Source of the DNA: an uncultured Actinomycetota bacterium
GTDB lineage: Bacteria; Actinomycetota; Thermoleophilia; Solirubrobacterales; Solirubrobacteraceae
Length of the DNA stretch: 64,000 nucleotides
Direction: 5' to 3'
NCBI GenBank assembly: GCA_963721515.1
Contig: CAVRKJ010000010.1
Location: 606,672-670,671, forward strand
Below, piece by piece: positions 17,565 to 27,797 of the stretch. The notes beneath the pieces were generated by a model that saw nothing but the letters and a program-made list of their open reading frames with translations, made no database searches and had not been told where the DNA came from. How positions within the stretch are numbered: the stretch's first letter is position 1; each line of letters starts with the position of its first letter. A program made the position numbers and the translations under genes.

Positions 17565-18986
17565 TCAGCCGGGGATCCCACCCCCGAGCCGCTCCGCCAG
17601 CCGCCCCAGTTCGGCGCCGATCGACCGGCGCGCCACCACCGGCGGGCAAATCTCGAGCACATCGGCTGTGAACGCGCTCAGGGCCGGCGGCGGCGCCCGG
17701 TCCGTGCGCGCGAAGGACTGAGCGGCCATGGCCGCGAGGCACGTGAGCGAGCCCACCACGAAACCGCGCACGCGGTCAAAGCGGTTCCAGGCGTGAAACG
17801 ACGGCGACGGCGCGTCGTTCTGCCCAAACCCCGGCAGCGGCAGCAACGAAGGTACCGCCGCCGTCCGGGCCTCCTCGGCGTAGCCGGCACTCACCATCTG
17901 CATCGTCCCCAGCGCCAGCGAGTCCAGGCCGGGCATCGCCTCGGGGTTCGTCTGCAGCCGCTGGAGCTGATGCTGGGCCAGCTGGGCCAGGTCAGCCAGC
18001 GCGAAGGTGAGGCCGTCGATGGCCGCCGGCGCGGCGCCGTTGTGAAAGCCGCCGGTCGAGACGATGTCGCCCGTGTCGCCGTTGGCCTGGCCGTCGCCGT
18101 CGCCGTCGCCGAACAGGAAGACGGGGTTGTCCGACACGGCGGGCAAGGCGATCTCCGCGGCCTCGCGCGCCGCGCCCAGCAGCCGGTTGGCGTTGCCCAA
18201 CACCCGCGGCAGGATCCGGAAGCTGACCGGCGGCTGCGGGTGCGCGTCAGCGCCCGGCGGCGGCCCGGCGCCGGCGATCCCGGCACGGATCGCCTGCAGG
18301 GCGGCGGTCTGCGCCGGATCGCCCCACAGCGCCTCCAGGCGCTCGTTATAGATTGAGGCGCTGACCCCGAAGGCCGCCACCGCCAGGCAGAACGCGTCCA
18401 CCGCCACCGCGAGCGTCCGCTCGGTGCACAGAGCGGCATCGGCGAGCAGCGCCGGGGCACACGGGGCGCCGTTGATGAGCGCCATCCCCTCCTTCACGCC
18501 CAGCTCCATCTCCCTGGGCACGTCCTCGAACAGCCAGCCGAGCGCCAGGATCTCGCCCGGGCCGCCGTTGCCCAGCCGCGGGACCGGCGGCAAGTCCCGG
18601 CCGTCCAGCTGCCGGGCCACCGCCTCCACCAGCGCGGGGGTGACCCCGGCGTGCCCCTCAACGAGGTTGGCCAGCCGCGCCAGCACGAACCCCCGGACCA
18701 CCCGCCGCGGGAACGGCGCGCCGAACGAGGTGGCGCTGTGCAGACCACGGGCGTAGTCGCGCTGCTCGGCCTCGCTCATCAGCCGGTCCGAGCCGTCGCC
18801 GGCGTGGACGTTGACGCCGTAGATCTTGCGGGCGGGGTCAGCCGTCACCAGCGCCAGGAACTCCGCGCGCCGGCGCGCCACCTCGGCCAGTGCCGCGGGG
18901 GTCACCACGACGTCCTCGCCCCGCCAGGCCACGCGGGCGAACGCGGCCAGGTCGATGTCGGCGCGGCGCGCGAGAGTGACCGTCAC
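17565..18986 (-). CDS. Aromatic-amino-acid-lyase family (HAL/PAL, PF00221-like) protein, divergent, no Ala-Ser-Gly triad (paralog 1)
   Basis: GTG 18986 overlaps the hutF stop (GTGA). Family blocks present: 'IYGVN', 'GMALINGAP', 'SDNPVF', 'STGGFHNGAAPAAIDG'. The MIO position reads 'LGNGGPGEILALG' (nt 18555-18563 encode GPG). The 124 Arg/Pro-rich codons upstream in the ORF were rejected. Confidence 0.7.
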   Translation of the reverse strand: MTVTLARRADIDLAAFARVAWRGEDVVVTPAALAEVARRRAEFLALVTADPARKIYGVNVHAGDGSDRLMSEAEQRDYARGLHSATSFGAPFPRRVVRGFVLARLANLVEGHAGVTPALVEAVARQLDGRDLPPVPRLGNGGPGEILALGWLFEDVPREMELGVKEGMALINGAPCAPALLADAALCTERTLAVAVDAFCLAVAAFGVSASIYNERLEALWGDPAQTAALQAIRAGIAGAGPPPGADAHPQPPVSFRILPRVLGNANRLLGAAREAAEIALPAVSDNPVFLFGDGDGDGQANGDTGDIVSTGGFHNGAAPAAIDGLTFALADLAQLAQHQLQRLQTNPEAMPGLDSLALGTMQMVSAGYAEEARTAAVPSLLPLPGFGQNDAPSPSFHAWNRFDRVRGFVVGSLTCLAAMAAQSFARTDRAPPPALSAFTADVLEICPPVVARRSIGAELGRLAERLGGGIPG

Positions 18987-20122
18987 GGCCGCACGCCCAC
19001 GCGGACCACCCCTGCCGACGCGCAGGTCGCGACCGCGAGCATCACGTCCGCCTCGGCCACGTTGGCGAGGTCCGGGTGGTCGAGGTTGAGCTCGATCTCG
19101 GCAACGGGCGCTGCGGGGAGGCCCAGGCTCGCGCGCCCGTTGACCGCCGTCTGCCCCCACAGGTCCCCGCCGGCGGCGGCCAACAGAGCGAAACGGGTGT
19201 GGCCCTCGCGGCGGGCCAGCGTCTCCATCTCGCGCAGCTCCTCGAAGGGATCGATCCGCACCTGCTCGTCGGTCCCGATGGCCAGGCGCACGCCGGCGTC
19301 GCGGTAGCGCAGCCCCGGCAGGAAGCCGTCGCCGAGGTTGCCCTCGGTGGTCGGGCACGTGACCACGATCGAGTCGCTCTCGGCCACCAGCGACACGTCA
19401 CGCTCGGAGACATGGATGGCGTGGATGACGCTCGTGCGCGGGCCGAGGAAGCCGGTGCGCGCCAGGAGCTCGATCGGCGAGCACCCGTGCTCGGCCTCGC
19501 ACTCAGCCAGCTCCCGCCGCTGCTCGGAGGCATGGACGTGGCGAACCAGACCGTGCTCCTCGGAGTAGCGCGCGATCTCCGACAGCCACCCGGCGGGGAC
19601 GGCCCGCACGCTGTGGGCCGCCACTCCCACGCTCACGCCATCAACGCCCGCGGCCCAGCGGCGCAGCCCGTCCACGCGCTCCAGGAACGCCTGTACCGAA
19701 GGGTCGCAGAAGCGCAGCTGTCCCGCCCCGGGCGGGGAGTCAGACCCCGCCCACCCGCCGCGGTGATAGGCGGCCGGCAGCAGCGTGATCTCGAGCCCGG
19801 CCGCGCGCGCCGCCTCGGCGAGCGCGATCGCCATCGCATTGGGCTCGGGGTAGGGCGTGCCGTCGGTCTGGTGGTGGACGTAGTGAAACTCGCCGACGGC
19901 GCCGTAGCCCGCCGCCGCCATCTGACCGTAGACGCGACGGCCGACCTCGCCCATCGTCTCCGGGGTGTGGCTCCCGGCCAGGCGGTACATCTCGGTCCGC
20001 CAGCTCCAGAAGTCGTCGGTGGCGCTCGAGGCGCTCACCCGCTCTGCGATGCCGCGCAGGTCGAGCTGGAACGCGTGCGAGTGCGCGTTGGCCATCGCGG
20101 GAATGCGAGCGATGCGGGTCAT
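18983..20122 (-). CDS. hutF: Formimidoylglutamate deiminase (HutF-type amidohydrolase), short N-terminus
   Basis: 'IPAMANAHSHAFQ' compares with Pseudomonas HutF 'LPGMPNLHSHAFQ'. 'FWSWRTEMYRL' and 'GEFHYVHH' also match. At 379 aa it lacks the ~55-aa N-terminal segment of the ~450-aa enzymes. ATGA overlap with hutI. Confidence 0.75.
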   Translation of the reverse strand: MTRIARIPAMANAHSHAFQLDLRGIAERVSASSATDDFWSWRTEMYRLAGSHTPETMGEVGRRVYGQMAAAGYGAVGEFHYVHHQTDGTPYPEPNAMAIALAEAARAAGLEITLLPAAYHRGGWAGSDSPPGAGQLRFCDPSVQAFLERVDGLRRWAAGVDGVSVGVAAHSVRAVPAGWLSEIARYSEEHGLVRHVHASEQRRELAECEAEHGCSPIELLARTGFLGPRTSVIHAIHVSERDVSLVAESDSIVVTCPTTEGNLGDGFLPGLRYRDAGVRLAIGTDEQVRIDPFEELREMETLARREGHTRFALLAAAGGDLWGQTAVNGRASLGLPAAPVAEIELNLDHPDLANVAEADVMLAVATCASAGVVRVGVRP

Positions 20123-21381
20123 GGGCCGCTGATTCTCTCCGCCGCCGCGTCGTCGCGCACGTAGGCGACCTCGCCGCCCACGATCGCGATCGCCACCGGG
20201 TTGTGGCCGAAGCGGTAGGGCACCGATTCCGCGGGCCCGTCCAGCACCACCAGGTCGGCGCGCTTGCCCACCTCGATCGACCCCCGGTCATGGTGCAGGT
20301 CAAGCGTCCAGGCGGCGTTCAGCGTGGCCGCCCCCAGCGCCTCGCACACGCTGAGCCCGTACAGGCGCGCGCCCAGTCCGATGACCACCGGCATCGAGAA
20401 CACCGGCGAGGTGCCGGGGTTGGCGTCGGTGGCCAGCACGAAGATCGCTCCCGCGTCGATGATCGCCCGTCCCGGGGCGCGGTGCTCGGCACCGAGGAAC
20501 TCCGCGCCCGGCAGCAGCACGGCGGCGCAGCGGGCCTGCGCCAGCGGGACGATGTCGTCGGGGTGGATCATCGACAGATGGTCGACGCTGCGCGCGCCGG
20601 CGGCGAGCGCCACCGGGACCGAGCGCAGGCACGACAGCTGCTCAACGTGGGTGCGCAGCGCCAGCCCCGACGCCGCCGCCAGCTCCCCCATCAGCTCGAG
20701 ATGCCCCAGGCCGAACGCGATCGACTCGACGAAGATGTCCAGCGCGGTCACGCTGCCCGCAGCCACCACCTCGGGCATCATCTCCTGCACCACCGCCATC
20801 CACGAGTCGGCGGTGTGGCCTTCGGGGACGGCGTGGGCGAGCAGCGCCGTGGAGGTGGTCGTTTGCACGACCTGGATCTCGAGCTCGCGCGCCAGCACCA
20901 GCGCCCGCATCTCCCCCTCGCGCGAGAGCCCGTAGCCCGACTTGCACTCGAACGTGGTGGTGCCCGCGGCGAGCATCTCCTCGGCCAGACCCGACGCCTG
21001 ATCGAGCACGGCGTCATCCGAGGCCTCGTGCAGCGCCCGCGCCGAGGACTTGATGCCTCCCCCGGTGCGCGCGATCTCCTCGTATGGCACCCCGGTCAGC
21101 TTCTGCTCGTACTCGCGCCAGCGCCACCCGGCGAACGGCAGATGGGTGTGGCAGTCCACGAACCCGGGGATGACCGTGCATCCGGAGGCGTCCACGGTCA
21201 CCTCGGCGATCGGGTCGGCCTCCAGTGCGGCGATCCGGCCGTCACGCGCGGCCACCGACCCGGGGTCGAGCGTCTGGGCGCCCAGCTCGTCGCCGCGCAG
21301 GTGCTCCATGCGGTCCCGGGGCGGGCGCAGCACCTGGGCGGCGCCCGTGATCGACAGCGGCGGCGGCGCTGGGCTCACCAC
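20119..21381 (-). CDS. hutI: Imidazolonepropionase
   Basis: 420 aa. '[18 protein letters not shown]' metal-binding motif, amidohydrolase fold, and position between hutU and hutF. Confidence 0.9.
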
Positions 21382-21385
21382 GCGC

Positions 21386-23032
<1,647 letters not shown>

Positions 23033-23095: not shown

Positions 23096-23692
23096 ATGGT
23101 CTTCAACCCGCTGAGCGCCCGCGCGGAGCGCAAGACCAGCCGGATGCTCACGCGCGTCGGCTGGGAGCCGCCGCAAACCTGGCCGGTGGCGCGCGCCGGC
23201 GAGCCGCCGCTGGTCTTCCAGACCCGGCTGCCCGCCGCCGAGTTCGTGCCCGCCGCGCAGCTGCCGGCGCAGCACCGCGACGCTCTCGCCTCGCTCGGCG
23301 GCGAGGCGATGCCGCTGGCGCAGGCCGAGCGCGCCGAGGACGTGTTCCTGGCCGCGGCGATCTGCTCCACGCAGGGCGACCACGGCGTGCTGGCGACGAT
23401 GACGGCGGCCTTGGCAGCGCAGCCGCTGCCGTTCCTGGATCGCCGCGGCGTCGAGCAGGGGCGCCGGGCCCGCAAGAAGGTCAACGGCATGCTCGGCCGC
23501 GTCACGATGATCGAGCGTCTGGACGGCGATGCGTCGCCGTCGCCCCTCGTCGTCCAGTACGCGATCGCACACCGTTACGGCACGCTCACGCTCACCTTCG
23601 TGGCGCACGGGTCGGGGCTGGCCGGCAACGCCCGCCGCCTGTTCCAGAACATCGTCCGGGGCTGCCATCTCGGCACCGAGCCGCTCATTTAG
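23096..23692 (+). CDS. Hypothetical protein (198 aa), no recognisable domain
   Basis: ATG 23096 lies inside ORF 22073..23692; the upstream part is antisense to hutU. Third-position GC is very high throughout, as in neighbouring real genes. Its stop overlaps the stop of the convergent OCD-family gene. Confidence 0.55.
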   Translation: MVFNPLSARAERKTSRMLTRVGWEPPQTWPVARAGEPPLVFQTRLPAAEFVPAAQLPAQHRDALASLGGEAMPLAQAERAEDVFLAAAICSTQGDHGVLATMTAALAAQPLPFLDRRGVEQGRRARKKVNGMLGRVTMIERLDGDASPSPLVVQYAIAHRYGTLTLTFVAHGSGLAGNARRLFQNIVRGCHLGTEPLI

Positions 23693-24693
23693 CGGTACGA
23701 GAGCGTCGTGCCCACCCCGAGCGCGCGCGCCTTGGCCAGCATTGCCTGACCCAGGGCGATGTCGGTGATCGAAAGCCCGCGGTGCCAGAACAGGATCCGC
23801 TCGTCCTCGCGCTCACGGCCGGGCCGGGCCCCGCACACGATCTGTCCCAGCTCGGCATGGAGGTTGTCCTGGGTGAGCCGGCCCGAGTCGACGTGCGCGC
23901 GCAGCGACCCGAGCGGGCCGATGCCGGCCTGGCCCCAGTCGTCGACGATGATTTTGTCCATCACGTCGGTGAGGTCCAGCTCCACCGCGCTGACCGTCCC
24001 ATAGGGGATGACCAGCGCGCCCGGTCGCACCCACGCGGTGGCCAGCAGCGGCTCGGGCTCGGTCAGCCGGGTGGCCTCGACGATGACGTCGGCGCCCTGC
24101 AGGCATTCGTCCCAGCTGTCCACCGCGCGCACCGGCGGGGCGGGCCGGGGCAGTGTCTCAGTGAGCCGCTGGGCGAACGCCTCGCGGCTCTCGCGCCGTC
24201 GCGAGTGGACGCGGACCTCCTCAAGCGCGGGTAGCACGTGGCACAGCAGCCGCACGTTCCAGTACGCCGTCCCGCGGGCGCCCACATGCCCGAGTACGCG
24301 CGCGTCACGCCGGGCCAGGTGCTCGGCGCCGATCGCGGTCACCGCCCCGGTCCGCATCTCGGTGATGGCGGTGGCGTCGATGACGGCGCGGGGCACGCCG
24401 GTGCCCGGGTCCATGAGCAGCAGCAGCGCCAGCTCGGACGGCAGTCCGACGCGGTGGTTGTCCACGTAGTCACCCACCACCTTGACCCCGGCGAACTCCG
24501 GCACGGCGCCGCGCAGCACGTTGAAGTGGCCGTTGACGGCGCGCGGGAACAGGTGCGTGCGGGGCTCGATCACGGTCTCGCCCCGCCCCTGGGCGGCGAG
24601 CACCCCGCGCACCGCCTCGAGGATCTCGTCGTCTGAGAGCGCCAGCGCCTCGACGTCCGCACCGCTGAGGTAGGTCAACTCGATGACACTCAC
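23689..24693 (-). CDS. Ornithine cyclodeaminase / mu-crystallin family NAD-dependent enzyme
   Basis: GTG 24693 ('VSVIELTYLSGADVEAL') overlaps the stop of the upstream lyase-like gene (GTGA). It has the 'TEMRTGAVTAI' family motif and the Rossmann segment 'LGHVGARGTAYWN'. Confidence 0.8.
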   Translation of the reverse strand: MSVIELTYLSGADVEALALSDDEILEAVRGVLAAQGRGETVIEPRTHLFPRAVNGHFNVLRGAVPEFAGVKVVGDYVDNHRVGLPSELALLLLMDPGTGVPRAVIDATAITEMRTGAVTAIGAEHLARRDARVLGHVGARGTAYWNVRLLCHVLPALEEVRVHSRRRESREAFAQRLTETLPRPAPPVRAVDSWDECLQGADVIVEATRLTEPEPLLATAWVRPGALVIPYGTVSAVELDLTDVMDKIIVDDWGQAGIGPLGSLRAHVDSGRLTQDNLHAELGQIVCGARPGREREDERILFWHRGLSITDIALGQAMLAKARALGVGTTLSYR

Positions 24694-26225
24694 GCCAACG
24701 TCACCGCGGCGCGCACTCGCTCGAGGAGATCGCCGCCGATGAGGGCGTGAGCGGCGAGCCGTTCCACGTCGGGCCCGACCGGCCGGTCCTCCGACAGCGT
24801 GTCGACCCAGTCGCGGACCACGGCGAAGGCGGCGGCGGTGCCCGCTCCGAGGAGCTCGGCCCGTCCGGCCGCGACCAGGTCGACCGCCTGGGCGGCGACG
24901 ATGAGCTCGATCGCCGCCACCAGCCACATCCGCTGCAGCTGCTCACGCAGCCGCAGCGCCGCGTGGGTGGCGCCCGTGGAGTCGTCTTCCACGCCGTCGC
25001 CGCCGATCGTCGGCATGATCGAGAGCGGCGCGGCGAGGTGGCGGATCTCCACCGTCAGCGCCTGGGCCGTCTTGGTCAGCGGCGACAGCCCCGAGCCGGT
25101 CACGCCCAGCGGAGACAGCCCCGCCGGGAGGCCGCTGAGGCGCTCGGTCTTCAGGCGGGCCTGGCGCTGGGCGCTTGCCGCCGCCACCTGCGCCAGCGCG
25201 ATCGCGGCCGCGTCCAGCGCCAGAGCCAGCGCGGGCACGTGGAAGTTGCCGGTGGAGAGGATCTCATCGTCCCCGGTGAGGACCAGCGGGTTGTCGGCCG
25301 CGCCCTGCAACTCGGCGGCCACCGCCGGCGCCAGCAGCTCCAGCGCGGCGCGCAGCGAGCCGTGGATCTGGCTGGCGCAGCGCAGGCTGATCGGATCCTG
25401 GAGCCGCCGGGCTGCCCCGGGCTCGGTGAGCGCACCGCCGGCCAGCAGCTCGCGCAGCCCCGCCGCCGACCACTCCTGGCCCGGCGCCGGGCGCGCCGCG
25501 ACCACGCGCGGATCCAGCGGGCTGAGATTGGCGCGGAATCCCTCCATCGACAGCGCCGCCGCCACCTGCATGGTCTCCAGGCACGCGGCGGCGTCGAGGA
25601 GCGCCAGCGCCGCCACCCCGGCGGACACCGCGGAGCTCGAGCAGATCGCCAGACCGTCCTTGGGGCCCAGCGTCACCGGGGCCAGGCCAGCGCGGGCGAG
25701 GGCATCGCCTGACGCCATCCGCACGCCGTCCAGCTCCGCGTCGCCCTCGCCGATCAGCGTCAGCCCGACATGGGCGAGCATGCACAGATCCGACGCGCCC
25801 ACCGAGCCGGTGTGCGGGATGCACGGGTGCACCCCGGCGCGGATGAGCGCCGCCAGCCCGTCGGCGATGGCCACGCTCGCGCCCGCGCCGCCGGCGCACA
25901 GGCCGTTGCACCGCACCGCCATCGCCGCCCGGGTGAGCTCCGCCGGCAGCGGCTCACCGACGGACATCGCCCGGCCCCGCAGCGTGCGCAGCGAGAACTC
26001 GGCGGCCGCCGCCCCATCGATCCGCTCCACCACCCGCGGGCCCAGGCCGGTGGTCAGGCCGTAGACCGGGGTGCCGGCGCGGGCGGCCCGCTCCACCACC
26101 GCCGCGGCGGCGAGCATGCGCTCGCGCGCCTCCGGTGCGATCGCGACGCCGGCGCCCTCACGCGCGATCCGAGCCACATCCCGCGGCATCAGCTCGGATC
26201 CGTCCAGCAAGACGCTCCCGTCCAT
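24690..26225 (-). CDS. Aromatic-amino-acid-lyase family (HAL-like) protein with degenerate MIO motif (paralog 2)
   Basis: 511 aa. Contains 'VYGLTTGLG', 'QDPISLRC' and 'STGNFH'. The MIO position reads 'GSVGAS-DLCMLAH' (nt 25788-25799 encode G-A-S-D), so the Gly of Ala-Ser-Gly is missing. Confidence 0.8.
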   Translation of the reverse strand: MDGSVLLDGSELMPRDVARIAREGAGVAIAPEARERMLAAAAVVERAARAGTPVYGLTTGLGPRVVERIDGAAAAEFSLRTLRGRAMSVGEPLPAELTRAAMAVRCNGLCAGGAGASVAIADGLAALIRAGVHPCIPHTGSVGASDLCMLAHVGLTLIGEGDAELDGVRMASGDALARAGLAPVTLGPKDGLAICSSSAVSAGVAALALLDAAACLETMQVAAALSMEGFRANLSPLDPRVVAARPAPGQEWSAAGLRELLAGGALTEPGAARRLQDPISLRCASQIHGSLRAALELLAPAVAAELQGAADNPLVLTGDDEILSTGNFHVPALALALDAAAIALAQVAAASAQRQARLKTERLSGLPAGLSPLGVTGSGLSPLTKTAQALTVEIRHLAAPLSIMPTIGGDGVEDDSTGATHAALRLREQLQRMWLVAAIELIVAAQAVDLVAAGRAELLGAGTAAAFAVVRDWVDTLSEDRPVGPDVERLAAHALIGGDLLERVRAAVTLA

Positions 26226-26267
26226 CGCGGGCGACGATACTGACCGGTGGCACTAGAGTGCCGCGCG

Positions 26268-27797
26268 ATGTCGACGCCGGCATTCACCGACGGCGAGCAC
26301 CCGCCCGTTGTCCTCGACGGCTCCACCCTCACCCCGCAAGGGGTGGCGGCGATCGCCCGCGACGGCGCGGTGGCGGTCCTCTCCTCCGGAGCGCGGGCGC
26401 GCAACGATCGTGCGCGCGAGGCGATCGCGGCGCTGCTGGCCCGCGGCGACGACCTCTACGGCGTCACCACGGGCGTCGGCGCGCTCCGCGCCTACCGGGT
26501 CCCCGAGGAGGACCGCGAGCGCTACGGGCTCAACCTGCTGCGCAGCCACGCCTGCGGCGCCGGTCTCATCCTCACCGCGCCCGTGGTCCGCGCCGCCATG
26601 GCCACCCGGGCCAACCAGATCGGCGCCGGCGGCGCGGGCGTTGCCAGCGAGCTTCTGGACACCCTGGTCGGCGCCCTCAATGCTGGGCTGACGCCGTTCA
26701 CCCGCGAGCTGGGCTCGCTGGGGACCGGCGATCTGACCAACCTGGCCGACGTGGCCCTGGCCCTGCTGGGCGAGGGCCGCGTGTGGCGGGGCGACGACCT
26801 CATCGACGCCGCGCAGGGCCTTACCGATGCCGGCGTGGAGCCGGGACGCATCGGCCCGCGCGACGGCCTGGCGTTCATCAGCTCCAACGCCTTCAGCATC
26901 GGCTACGCGGCGCTGCTCGTCGTTGATGCGCGGCGGCTGCTCGACGCCTGGCTGTCGGTGGCGGCATTGTCCTTCGAGGCCGCCGCTGCCGACCCGGTGG
27001 TGCTCGACCCCCGCATCCACTCCGCGATCCACCGGCCGGGCCAGTCGGCGGTGGCCCGTCGCATGCGCGAGCTGCTGGCCGGCCTGGAGGAGCGGGCGCG
27101 CGAGCCGGGTCCGCTGGGGATCCAGGACCCGTACCCGTTCCGCGCCCAGCCGCAGGTCGACGGCGCCGTGCACGATGCGCTGCGCGCGCTCGAGGAGACC
27201 GTCTGCCACGAGCTCAACTTTGCCGGCGAGAACGCCCTGATCGTCCCCGGGGAGGACATCGCACTGCCCAACGGCAACCCTCACGCGGCGCCGCTGGCCA
27301 ACGCCATCGACGGCCTGCGCACCGCGCTGGCGTCGTCAGCGGCGCTGATCGCCGCCCGAGTGTCGACCCTCCTGGACACCGGCCTCACCGGGCTGCCCCC
27401 GTTCCTGGCCCGCCATCCCGGCCCGGAGTCCGGCGCCCTCGTGCTCGAGTACACCGCTCACGCCGCCGTGGCGGAGGTGCGCTCGCTCGTCACCCCGGTG
27501 GCGGCCCAGACCGTGTCGGTGTCCCGCGGCGTCGAGTCGCATTCCAGCCTCGCGCCCATCGCCGCGCGGCGCGCCCACGAGACGCTGCGCGCCTTGCGCG
27601 TCGCGGTCGCCACGGAGCTCGTTGTCGCCGTGCGGGCCCTGCGCGTGGCCGGGCAGGAGCCCGTGGGCGCGGGCACGCGCGAGCTGTGGGCGCTAGCGGC
27701 CGAGCGCCTGGACCCGGACCTCCGCGACCGGCCGCTGCATCCTGACGTCGAGGCCGCTCGCGAGCTCATCGACGCGTGGGACACCGCGCTGGGCTGA
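26268..27797 (+). CDS. Aromatic-amino-acid-lyase family (HAL-like) protein with non-canonical triad (paralog 3)
   Basis: Contains 'LYGVTTGVG', 'LRSHACGAG', 'IQDPYPFRAQPQV' and 'GVESHSS'. The MIO position reads 'GSLGTGDLTNLA' (nt 26721-26729 encode G-T-G). The start is ATG 26268 or GTG 26247. Confidence 0.8.
   Translation: MSTPAFTDGEHPPVVLDGSTLTPQGVAAIARDGAVAVLSSGARARNDRAREAIAALLARGDDLYGVTTGVGALRAYRVPEEDRERYGLNLLRSHACGAGLILTAPVVRAAMATRANQIGAGGAGVASELLDTLVGALNAGLTPFTRELGSLGTGDLTNLADVALALLGEGRVWRGDDLIDAAQGLTDAGVEPGRIGPRDGLAFISSNAFSIGYAALLVVDARRLLDAWLSVAALSFEAAAADPVVLDPRIHSAIHRPGQSAVARRMRELLAGLEERAREPGPLGIQDPYPFRAQPQVDGAVHDALRALEETVCHELNFAGENALIVPGEDIALPNGNPHAAPLANAIDGLRTALASSAALIAARVSTLLDTGLTGLPPFLARHPGPESGALVLEYTAHAAVAEVRSLVTPVAAQTVSVSRGVESHSSLAPIAARRAHETLRALRVAVATELVVAVRALRVAGQEPVGAGTRELWALAAERLDPDLRDRPLHPDVEAARELIDAWDTALG

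Follow-up and report, generated by a model that had tools for sequence, protein, structure and literature searches.

We analysed a 64,000-nucleotide stretch of DNA (the window) from an uncultured bacterium of the Solirubrobacteraceae (Actinomycetota; assembly GCA_963721515.1, contig CAVRKJ010000010.1, positions 606,672 to 670,671), in which a gene for a protein of the histidine ammonia-lyase (HAL) family, here called HAL2, overlaps a gene of the ornithine cyclodeaminase (OCD)/mu-crystallin family. Judged by its sequence, HAL2 belongs to a distinct Arg85/Lys385 sub-branch of the known trimethylammonia-lyases that lack the 4-methylideneimidazole-5-one (MIO) electrophile, and this sub-branch co-evolves with a dedicated OCD-family reductase. 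The gene is real, intact and under selection, and its product is neither an ordinary histidase nor a new enzyme class. HAL2 is likely a lyase for a histidine-derived betaine that feeds urocanate to the histidine utilization (Hut) enzymes. In the full scheme that we favour, with a probability of roughly 0.5, HAL2 would cleave trimethylamine from oxidised ergothioneine (the sulfonate or the sulfinate), and NAD(P)H-dependent removal of the sulfur oxyanion would then yield urocanate.

The window has a G+C content of about 72%, and the closest homologues come from metagenome-assembled genomes (MAGs) of Solirubrobacteraceae. HAL2 gives a full-length match to PF00221 (427 bits over residues 14-471, cut-off 27.3). 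In HutH, a triad of Ala/Cys/Ser-Ser-Gly cyclises to MIO; HAL2 reads GSVGASDL there (residues 140-147), so that the triad gives way to GASD, one residue short. The first-pass annotation, made from the DNA letters and their translations, had pointed to this G-A-S-D and to 'ICSSSA' and 'QDPISLRC' at the positions of Asn195 and Tyr280, and all three are present in the translation. We found G-[AP]-[SA]-D-L in 111 of 121 close homologues, with Ala instead of Ser in about 40; the GASD loop is a family trait and not a sequence error. Because Ser145 is freely swapped for Ala, the methylidene-forming serine is dispensable, and no MIO ring can form. The family loop GA[S/A]D bears out the earlier claim that the electrophile is missing.

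Compared with HutH of Pseudomonas putida (PDB 1b8f/1gkm), HAL2 agrees in fold, in length and in the residues that bind the carboxylate, and has the Tyr53 residue, but it lacks Ala-Ser-Gly, and the active-site residues His83, Asn195 and Tyr280 are replaced by Arg85, Ser197 and Ile279 at the aligned positions. That HAL2 is an ordinary histidine ammonia-lyase despite its motif, or a decayed and inactive paralogue, is very improbable. It is full-length and stop-free, matches the hutH models over their whole length and lies beside hut genes, but it scores only 361 and 366 bits on the hutH equivalog models, far below their cut-offs of 539 and 524. These scores, the three replacements, the Ala found for Ser145 in the family and a CSG-type, MIO-capable histidase elsewhere in the genome all speak against an ordinary histidase, in agreement with the first-pass annotation. 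Decay is ruled out by conservation across phyla at 35-87% identity with invariant active-site residues.

HAL-family enzymes without MIO are a described class, the trimethylammonia-lyases, for which two preprints give ergothionase, histidine betaine lyase and N-pi-methyl-histidine-betaine lyase as members; no electrophile is needed for the quaternary ammonium to leave, and in ergothionase the sulfur is bound by Lys384. The best solved match of HAL2 is ergothionase of Treponema denticola (PDB 6s7j/6s7q, 222 bits). Common to both are a one-residue-short loop without Ala-Ser-Gly (SSIGEGDI in ergothionase, with HAL2 having the loop length of 6s7j), the Tyr base, the carboxylate-binding Gln and Arg (Tyr55, Gln276 and Arg282 in HAL2, all conserved), a Ser at the Asn195 position, the Lys384 counterpart and the imidazole-site Glu-Asp; the Tyr280 position is aliphatic in both, Leu in ergothionase and Ile in HAL2. 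The lost Gly and the Asn195 and Tyr280 changes, singled out in the first-pass annotation, are therefore present but not peculiar to HAL2, as ergothionase has all three (Ser for Asn195, an aliphatic residue for Tyr280). The most telling changes were absent from that annotation: His83 has become Arg85, and Lys385 has been gained. Ergothionase keeps His83 (as Ser-His); in HAL2, as throughout its sub-branch, [Gly/Ala]-Arg stands there, so that of the strict ergothionase pair, His83 plus Lys384, HAL2 keeps the Lys and has an invariant Arg for the His. In the clusters checked, ergothionase goes with a thiourocanate hydratase route and no OCD partner, whereas HAL2 goes with a true HutU and an OCD partner. 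The Shewanella enzymes Swoo_3913 (histidine betaine lyase) and SO_3299 (N-pi-methyl-histidine-betaine lyase) are, like HAL2, MIO-less members of the HAL family, and release trimethylamine to yield (methyl)urocanate; unlike HAL2, they keep His83, have Asn or Gln instead of the Lys, and work in the periplasm, where their partners are flavocytochrome reductases of anaerobic respiration rather than an OCD protein and Hut enzymes.

To place HAL2 among its relatives, we made an exhaustive homologue search and used 150 representatives for a tree and alignment and 54 representatives (35-70% identity) for conservation within the sub-branch. The 150 divide into MIO-bearing histidases and a large, diverse assembly of MIO-less proteins; in a FastTree tree, rooted on a divergent paralogue and read without regard to support values, the GASGD proteins form one clade and HAL2 falls among GxxD proteins. 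Its sub-branch combines the replacement of His83 by [Gly/Ala]-Arg with a Lys at the ergothionase Lys384 position: Arg85, Lys385, Arg282, Glu413 and Asp414 are invariant in the 54 representatives and Tyr55 is near-invariant, so the Tyr that takes the beta-proton, the residues that clamp the carboxylate and the Glu that binds N-pi are all retained. By alignment, Arg85 and Lys385 would put two cationic residues at the far edge of the imidazole ring.

The partner gene product matches PF02423 (174 bits), and the overlap of the lyase stop with its GTG start, seen in the first-pass annotation, was confirmed. Its orthologues align from residues 1-6 of the 334-residue reading, which favours this start over that of a longer open reading frame (ORF) of 412 residues. 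The triad Arg45, Lys71 and Arg114 is conserved in at least 96% of 49 orthologues, and the protein is more conserved than its lyase partner (59-87% versus 46-87% identity). It falls below the cut-offs of all 13 NCBIfam equivalog models tested, which include ornithine cyclodeaminase proper, archaeal alanine dehydrogenase, SbnB, EutC, BhcD and LhpI; the best is ala_DH_arch, with 174 bits against 409. The best solved relative is a delta1-pyrroline-2-carboxylate reductase (137 bits). With the delta1-pyrroline-2-carboxylate/ketimine reductases (PDB 6t3e, 4bv8) it has in common a Rossmann fold and an Arg/Lys/Arg triad that receives the acid group of the imine carbon, but it forms an orthologue group of its own (54-87% identity across phyla), and in its proposed substrate the carbon to be reduced would carry a sulfonate instead of a carboxylate. 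We also considered a two-enzyme, NAD-assisted histidase (histidine to imine to urocanate) and rejected it, as we saw no redox-neutral way to turn the imino acid into urocanate.

The lyase and the OCD-family protein form a real, widespread and conserved functional pair. They are adjacent in five genomes of the same genus, one of which has the reverse gene order and no hut gene near. Across two phylum samples, an OCD gene adjoins all nine Arg-type loci and none of 23 canonical GASGD loci, most of which have hutU. We then scanned loci in one genome per species, obtaining 80 loci (from Solirubrobacterales, Gaiellales, Streptomyces, Actinomadura, Spirillospora, Acidimicrobiia, Rhodospirillales, Kiloniellales, Dongiaceae, Halofilum and others), and based the statistics on the 48 with at least 5 kb on both sides. 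Of these, 36 have an OCD orthologue, 32 of them within 150 nt and in both gene orders, and 28 have a hut gene; OCD-bearing loci span Actinomycetota and Pseudomonadota and many orders. Co-occurrence in other genomes, which the first-pass annotation had proposed as a check, is thus well established. When the OCD protein alone served as query, 20 of 401 genomes of the phylum proved to have an orthologue (a tally that includes two unpublished genomes, G041 and G159, on which no specific claim depends). The 12 neighbourhoods retrieved include a betaine-type ABC importer in eight and, in seven, an MIO-less lyase that has diverged much further (about 30% identity to HAL2), and nine of ten very divergent OCD-linked lyases have Tyr55, Arg85 and Lys385. 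The module is common, occurring in 86 plasmid records, mostly from Rhizobium, and in many Actinomycetota and Alphaproteobacteria; searching plasmids with HAL2 at E 1e-60 gave one Streptomyces record only, the more conserved OCD protein being the better probe.

The genes around the pair point to histidine catabolism. True hutU, hutI, hutF and hutG genes lie beside it in Solirubrobacterales, Alphaproteobacteria, Streptomyces, Actinomadura and an unassigned metagenome contig; in the window, hutU, hutI and hutF are downstream of the OCD gene on the same strand, and in Alphaproteobacteria the OCD gene comes after a true hutF, with true hutI, hutG and hutU alongside. An operon of Rhizobium leguminosarum comprises hutC, an Arg/Lys-type lyase (annotated hutH, loop GSIGAADL), an OpuAC-type binding protein, the OCD gene, an SsuA-like binding protein, two permeases and an ATPase. 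HutC is a urocanate-responsive repressor, and with hutC at the head of this operon, urocanate is probably the product. The substrate suggested in the first-pass annotation, a different amino or imino acid, was right in departing from an ordinary histidase but too general, as the context points to a histidine-derived betaine and a urocanate product. OpuAC-type importers recur in Streptomyces and other actinomycetes.

The pair could instead degrade a non-histidine betaine, or an N-alkyl amino acid, whose acidic side chain is bound by Arg85 and Lys385, the hut genes being adjacent only because they have regulation or an end product, for instance glutamate, in common with it. The loss of the imidazole-binding His83 fits this, most Streptomyces loci consist only of transporter, OCD, lyase and amidohydrolase-2 genes with no hut gene within 10 kb, and the OpuAC and MttB families serve many betaines. 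We consider it improbable nonetheless, because at least four unrelated lineages have hut genes next to the pair and the first gene of the Rhizobium operon is hutC, because Glu413, equivalent to the Glu414 that binds the imidazole N-pi, is invariant, and because ergothioneine-dioxygenase-like genes co-locate with the module. Ectoine (through an EutC-like enzyme), proline betaine and lysine or ornithine betaines were set aside as substrates, since they leave the hut/hutC linkage and the sulfur-related neighbours unexplained.

Sulfur-related genes recur at these loci. The module has putative sulfate exporters (PSE/YeiH) as neighbours in Rhizobium, Polaromonas and Paracoccus, and a PhnD/SsuA-family binding protein is encoded a few nucleotides after the OCD gene in Rhizobium and Polaromonas and close by, beside hutC, in Paracoccus (L153:13011-13817, L154:10011-10847 and L155:11832-12635; in Polaromonas without an adjacent permease). 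This SsuA-like protein could be part of a sulfonate-binding importer or something else. Together with the Arg/Lys signature, the recurring sulfur-related neighbours narrow the substrate. Making urocanate from such a histidine betaine takes the removal of two groups, and two enzymes are conserved together; the lyase would take trimethylamine and the OCD-family protein the sulfur group.

We infer the identity of the substrate, the order of the steps and the desulfonation chemistry as follows. In HAL2, Tyr55 would take the beta-proton while Gln276 and Arg282 hold the carboxylate; the shortened loop would make room for the trimethylammonium group, and trimethylamine would leave without an electrophile. 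Arg85 and Lys385, at the positions that in ergothionase serve to hold the imidazole N-tau and C2 sulfur, would bind an anionic group on imidazole C2, so that the substrate would most likely be ergothioneine sulfonate, possibly the sulfinate, and the product 2-sulfo-urocanate. The imidazole-2-sulfonate offers N=C(-SO3-) instead of N=C(-COO-), and the Arg/Lys/Arg triad of the OCD-family protein may bind the C2 sulfonate in place of a ketimine 2-carboxylate. The enzyme would deliver the hydride of NAD(P)H to C2, sulfite would leave as the ring re-aromatises to urocanate, and HutU, HutI and HutF would convert urocanate towards glutamate. Sulfate exporters, SsuA-like proteins and a true HutU all fit reductive desulfonation. 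A reductive desulfurase acting on thiourocanate, with the propenoate carboxylate in the triad, was considered and set aside: the triad binds the acid group on the reduced carbon itself, a geometry that fits a sulfonate.

Another possibility, which we regard as unlikely though not negligible, is that HAL2 is a trimethylamine-lyase for unoxidised hercynine or ergothioneine and that the OCD-family protein serves this catabolism at a different point, for example by working as amino-acid dehydrogenase or imine reductase on a by-product or on partly demethylated N-methylhistidines from MttB-type or Rieske demethylases. The known MIO-less lyases do act on hercynine and ergothioneine, and the top NCBIfam match of the OCD-family protein is archaeal alanine dehydrogenase. 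An MttB-family (non-pyrrolysine) methyltransferase gene is divergent from the Arg/Lys-type lyase in 12 mostly alphaproteobacterial loci (L098:8301-9833, L100:8312-10138, L095:135-2024, L086:6877-8403 and eight more), and betaine demethylation and the handling of released trimethylamine are candidate roles for it; the unassigned contig (L058) has Rieske, flavin-reductase and DAO genes. Hercynine, however, needs the lyase alone to become urocanate, which leaves a strictly co-evolving second enzyme without a role, and the known hercynine lyases keep His83 and lack the Lys, features to which the paralogue HAL1 is better suited. Unoxidised ergothioneine would give thiourocanate and require a thiourocanate hydratase, but the enzyme encoded next door is a true HutU. 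This reading would also leave the sulfate-exporter and SsuA-like genes unexplained.

Several observations weigh against the oxidised-ergothioneine scheme itself. Reductive C-S cleavage is, as far as we checked, not a tested activity of the OCD family, and the placement of Arg85 and Lys385 at imidazole C2 comes from alignment to ergothionase, not from a structure. The OCD gene is missing from 12 of the 48 well-flanked loci and so is not obligatory. The one exception among the ten very divergent OCD-linked lyases, on plasmid 1 of Polaromonas sp. JS666, keeps His83, and as a lyase of ergothionase type it also favours an unoxidised substrate. The scheme does not explain the MttB genes beside alphaproteobacterial lyases. 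The annotated neighbours in the window include no recognised sulfate exporter or SsuA-like gene, and the nearest importer there is an MFS protein. One of the 12 loci without OCD, in an Actinophytocola MAG (L119), has dioxygenase-like and amidohydrolase-2 genes instead, and the sulfur-removing step may be interchangeable.

Those two gene types recur at other loci. In seven Streptomyces loci the lyase gene is followed by a translationally coupled amidohydrolase-2 gene, a cysteine-dioxygenase-like and amidohydrolase-2 pair occurs in five further loci, and the dioxygenase-like gene alone in three more loci with the OCD module. The closest solved relatives of the dioxygenase-like protein are the PDB 8qfl series, which we take to be structures of ergothioneine dioxygenase. 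Actinobacteria are said, in work from 2024, to pair an ergothioneine dioxygenase with a metal-dependent sulfinate desulfinase. In the genome studied here, contig 18 encodes an amidohydrolase-2 protein (304 aa) whose gene overlaps a cysteine-dioxygenase-like gene (158 aa) by 4 nt; the two are 45% and 38% identical, respectively, to module-associated genes of other actinomycetes, and they are a candidate ergothioneine dioxygenase and sulfinate desulfinase. Ergothioneine dioxygenase is mentioned in the literature.

A pathway for ergothioneine sulfonate has been described in Agrobacterium radiobacter (Yan, Huang, Zhang, ACS Catal 2022, 12:4825; doi 10.1021/acscatal.2c00169), in whose breakdown, as far as the title and the text citing it convey, a rhizobial ergothionase-like enzyme acts. 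The Rhizobium module, with hutC, an Arg/Lys-type lyase, OpuAC, OCD and SsuA-like genes and a sulfate exporter nearby, has the look that would be expected of such a pathway. Going by that title and citing text, the 2022 pathway probably describes the HAL2-OCD module, although its enzymes may differ from HAL2 and the OCD-family protein, which would count against our scheme. A literature search for MIO lyases or ergothioneine with ornithine cyclodeaminase, and for ergothioneine oxidation and desulfonation, found no paper describing the pair. The first-pass annotation, which did not recognise the pairing as a described pathway, was right that the coupling to an OCD gene is functional, but MIO-less HAL enzymes are a described class and the 2022 work, from what its title and citing text indicate, probably covers the pair.

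Coordinates of the features discussed are collected in Table 1. The genome has seven PF00221 genes, five of them MIO-less and two with an x-Ser-Gly triad, and this expansion of cofactor-less lyases is unusual. The MIO-less genes (C16:12063-13433, C10:600840-602219 and window positions 17565-18986, 24690-26225 and 26247-27797) have loops of the GMSD type with Ser-His (ergothionase-like), the 'ADQV' type, GTGD and GASD, and one that is degenerate. The triad-bearing genes are a CSG type at C16:95052-96446 (likely a histidase, MIO-capable) and an ASG type without His83 at C21:523472-524920. HAL1 keeps the His83, Tyr280 and Glu414 equivalents and has EYT without the Lys, and an MFS transporter adjoins it in most Solirubrobacteraceae loci; from these residues, a role as hercynine (histidine betaine) lyase would suit HAL1 better than HAL2. 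The ORF between the OCD gene and hutU is conserved in the closest relatives only, and elsewhere hutU lies 20-45 nt after the OCD gene on the same strand. It has no Pfam or PDB match, and a cysteine-dioxygenase-like identity was ruled out (BLASTP E 2.8).

Table 1. Features of the HAL2-OCD locus and its surroundings (window positions, except for the pair on contig 18)
Feature	Position	Strand	Basis or remark
HAL2, MIO-less HAL/PAL-family lyase, 511 aa, Arg85/Lys385 sub-branch	24690..26225	-	stop-free ORF, PF00221
Codons G143-A144-S145-D146, shortened loop at the MIO position	25788..25799	-	translation; family motif GA[S/A]D
Tyr55 codon; conserved, putative beta-proton base, equivalent to Tyr53 of histidase	26061..26063	-	
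Arg85 codon; replaces imidazole-binding His83 of histidase; invariant in 54 sub-branch representatives	25971..25973	-	
Lys385 codon; aligns with T. denticola ergothionase Lys384 (thiolate binder); invariant in sub-branch	25071..25073	-	
GTGA stop/start overlap, lyase to OCD-family gene	24690..24693	-	lyase end GCG TGA; partner start GTG AGT GTC
OCD/mu-crystallin-family NAD(P) enzyme, 334 aa; Arg45/Lys71/Arg114 acid-binding triad kept	23689..24693	-	PF02423
ORF, 198 aa, high third-position G+C, between OCD and hutU	23096..23692	+	
hutU, urocanate hydratase	21386..23032	-	921 bits, above cut-off; below cut-offs of thiourocanate variants
hutI, imidazolonepropionase	20119..21381	-	
hutF, formimidoylglutamate deiminase	18983..20122	-	
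HAL3, third, very divergent MIO-less HAL-family gene, end of hut operon	17565..18986	-	
HAL1, divergently transcribed MIO-less paralogue, GTGD loop, 39% identical to HAL2	26247..27797	+	
Amidohydrolase-2/dioxygenase-like pair	G000:C18:113921-115308 (L152:9922-11309)	-	

Three related loci show further arrangements. In the Actinophytocola MAG (L119:37-7271), amidohydrolase-2, dioxygenase-like and OpuAC genes accompany a HAL2-type lyase, with no OCD gene in the 17-kb locus. The lyase of Polaromonas sp. JS666 (L154:6276-7895), with Ser-His and Lys, sits between the YeiH/PSE exporter and a TTT binding protein. On the unassigned contig, flavin reductase, OCD and Arg/Lys-type lyase genes come directly after hutI-hutH-hutU (L058:6345-14561), and further on lie DAO, class-III aminotransferase, arginase-family and Rieske oxygenase genes; together these genes may form a larger island for the breakdown of methylated or guanidino compounds.

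Fungi and actinobacteria produce large amounts of ergothioneine, which reaches soil, plants and animals; to our knowledge, little has been reported on how its oxidised forms are recycled. The OCD partner may be a new C-S-cleaving enzyme, an NAD(P)H-dependent reductive desulfonase or desulfurase that forms, with the Arg85/Lys385 lyases, a widespread and undescribed soil route from oxidised ergothioneine into Hut, although in this strong form the proposal is doubtful. If the chemistry of the partner is as proposed, it would extend the OCD family to reductive C-S cleavage. The Arg85/Lys385 signature makes it easy to tell these lyases from histidases and from ergothionases. Since the lyases are annotated as 'histidine ammonia-lyase' and their partners as 'ornithine cyclodeaminase family protein', current annotation would hide a pathway that releases trimethylamine and sulfite.

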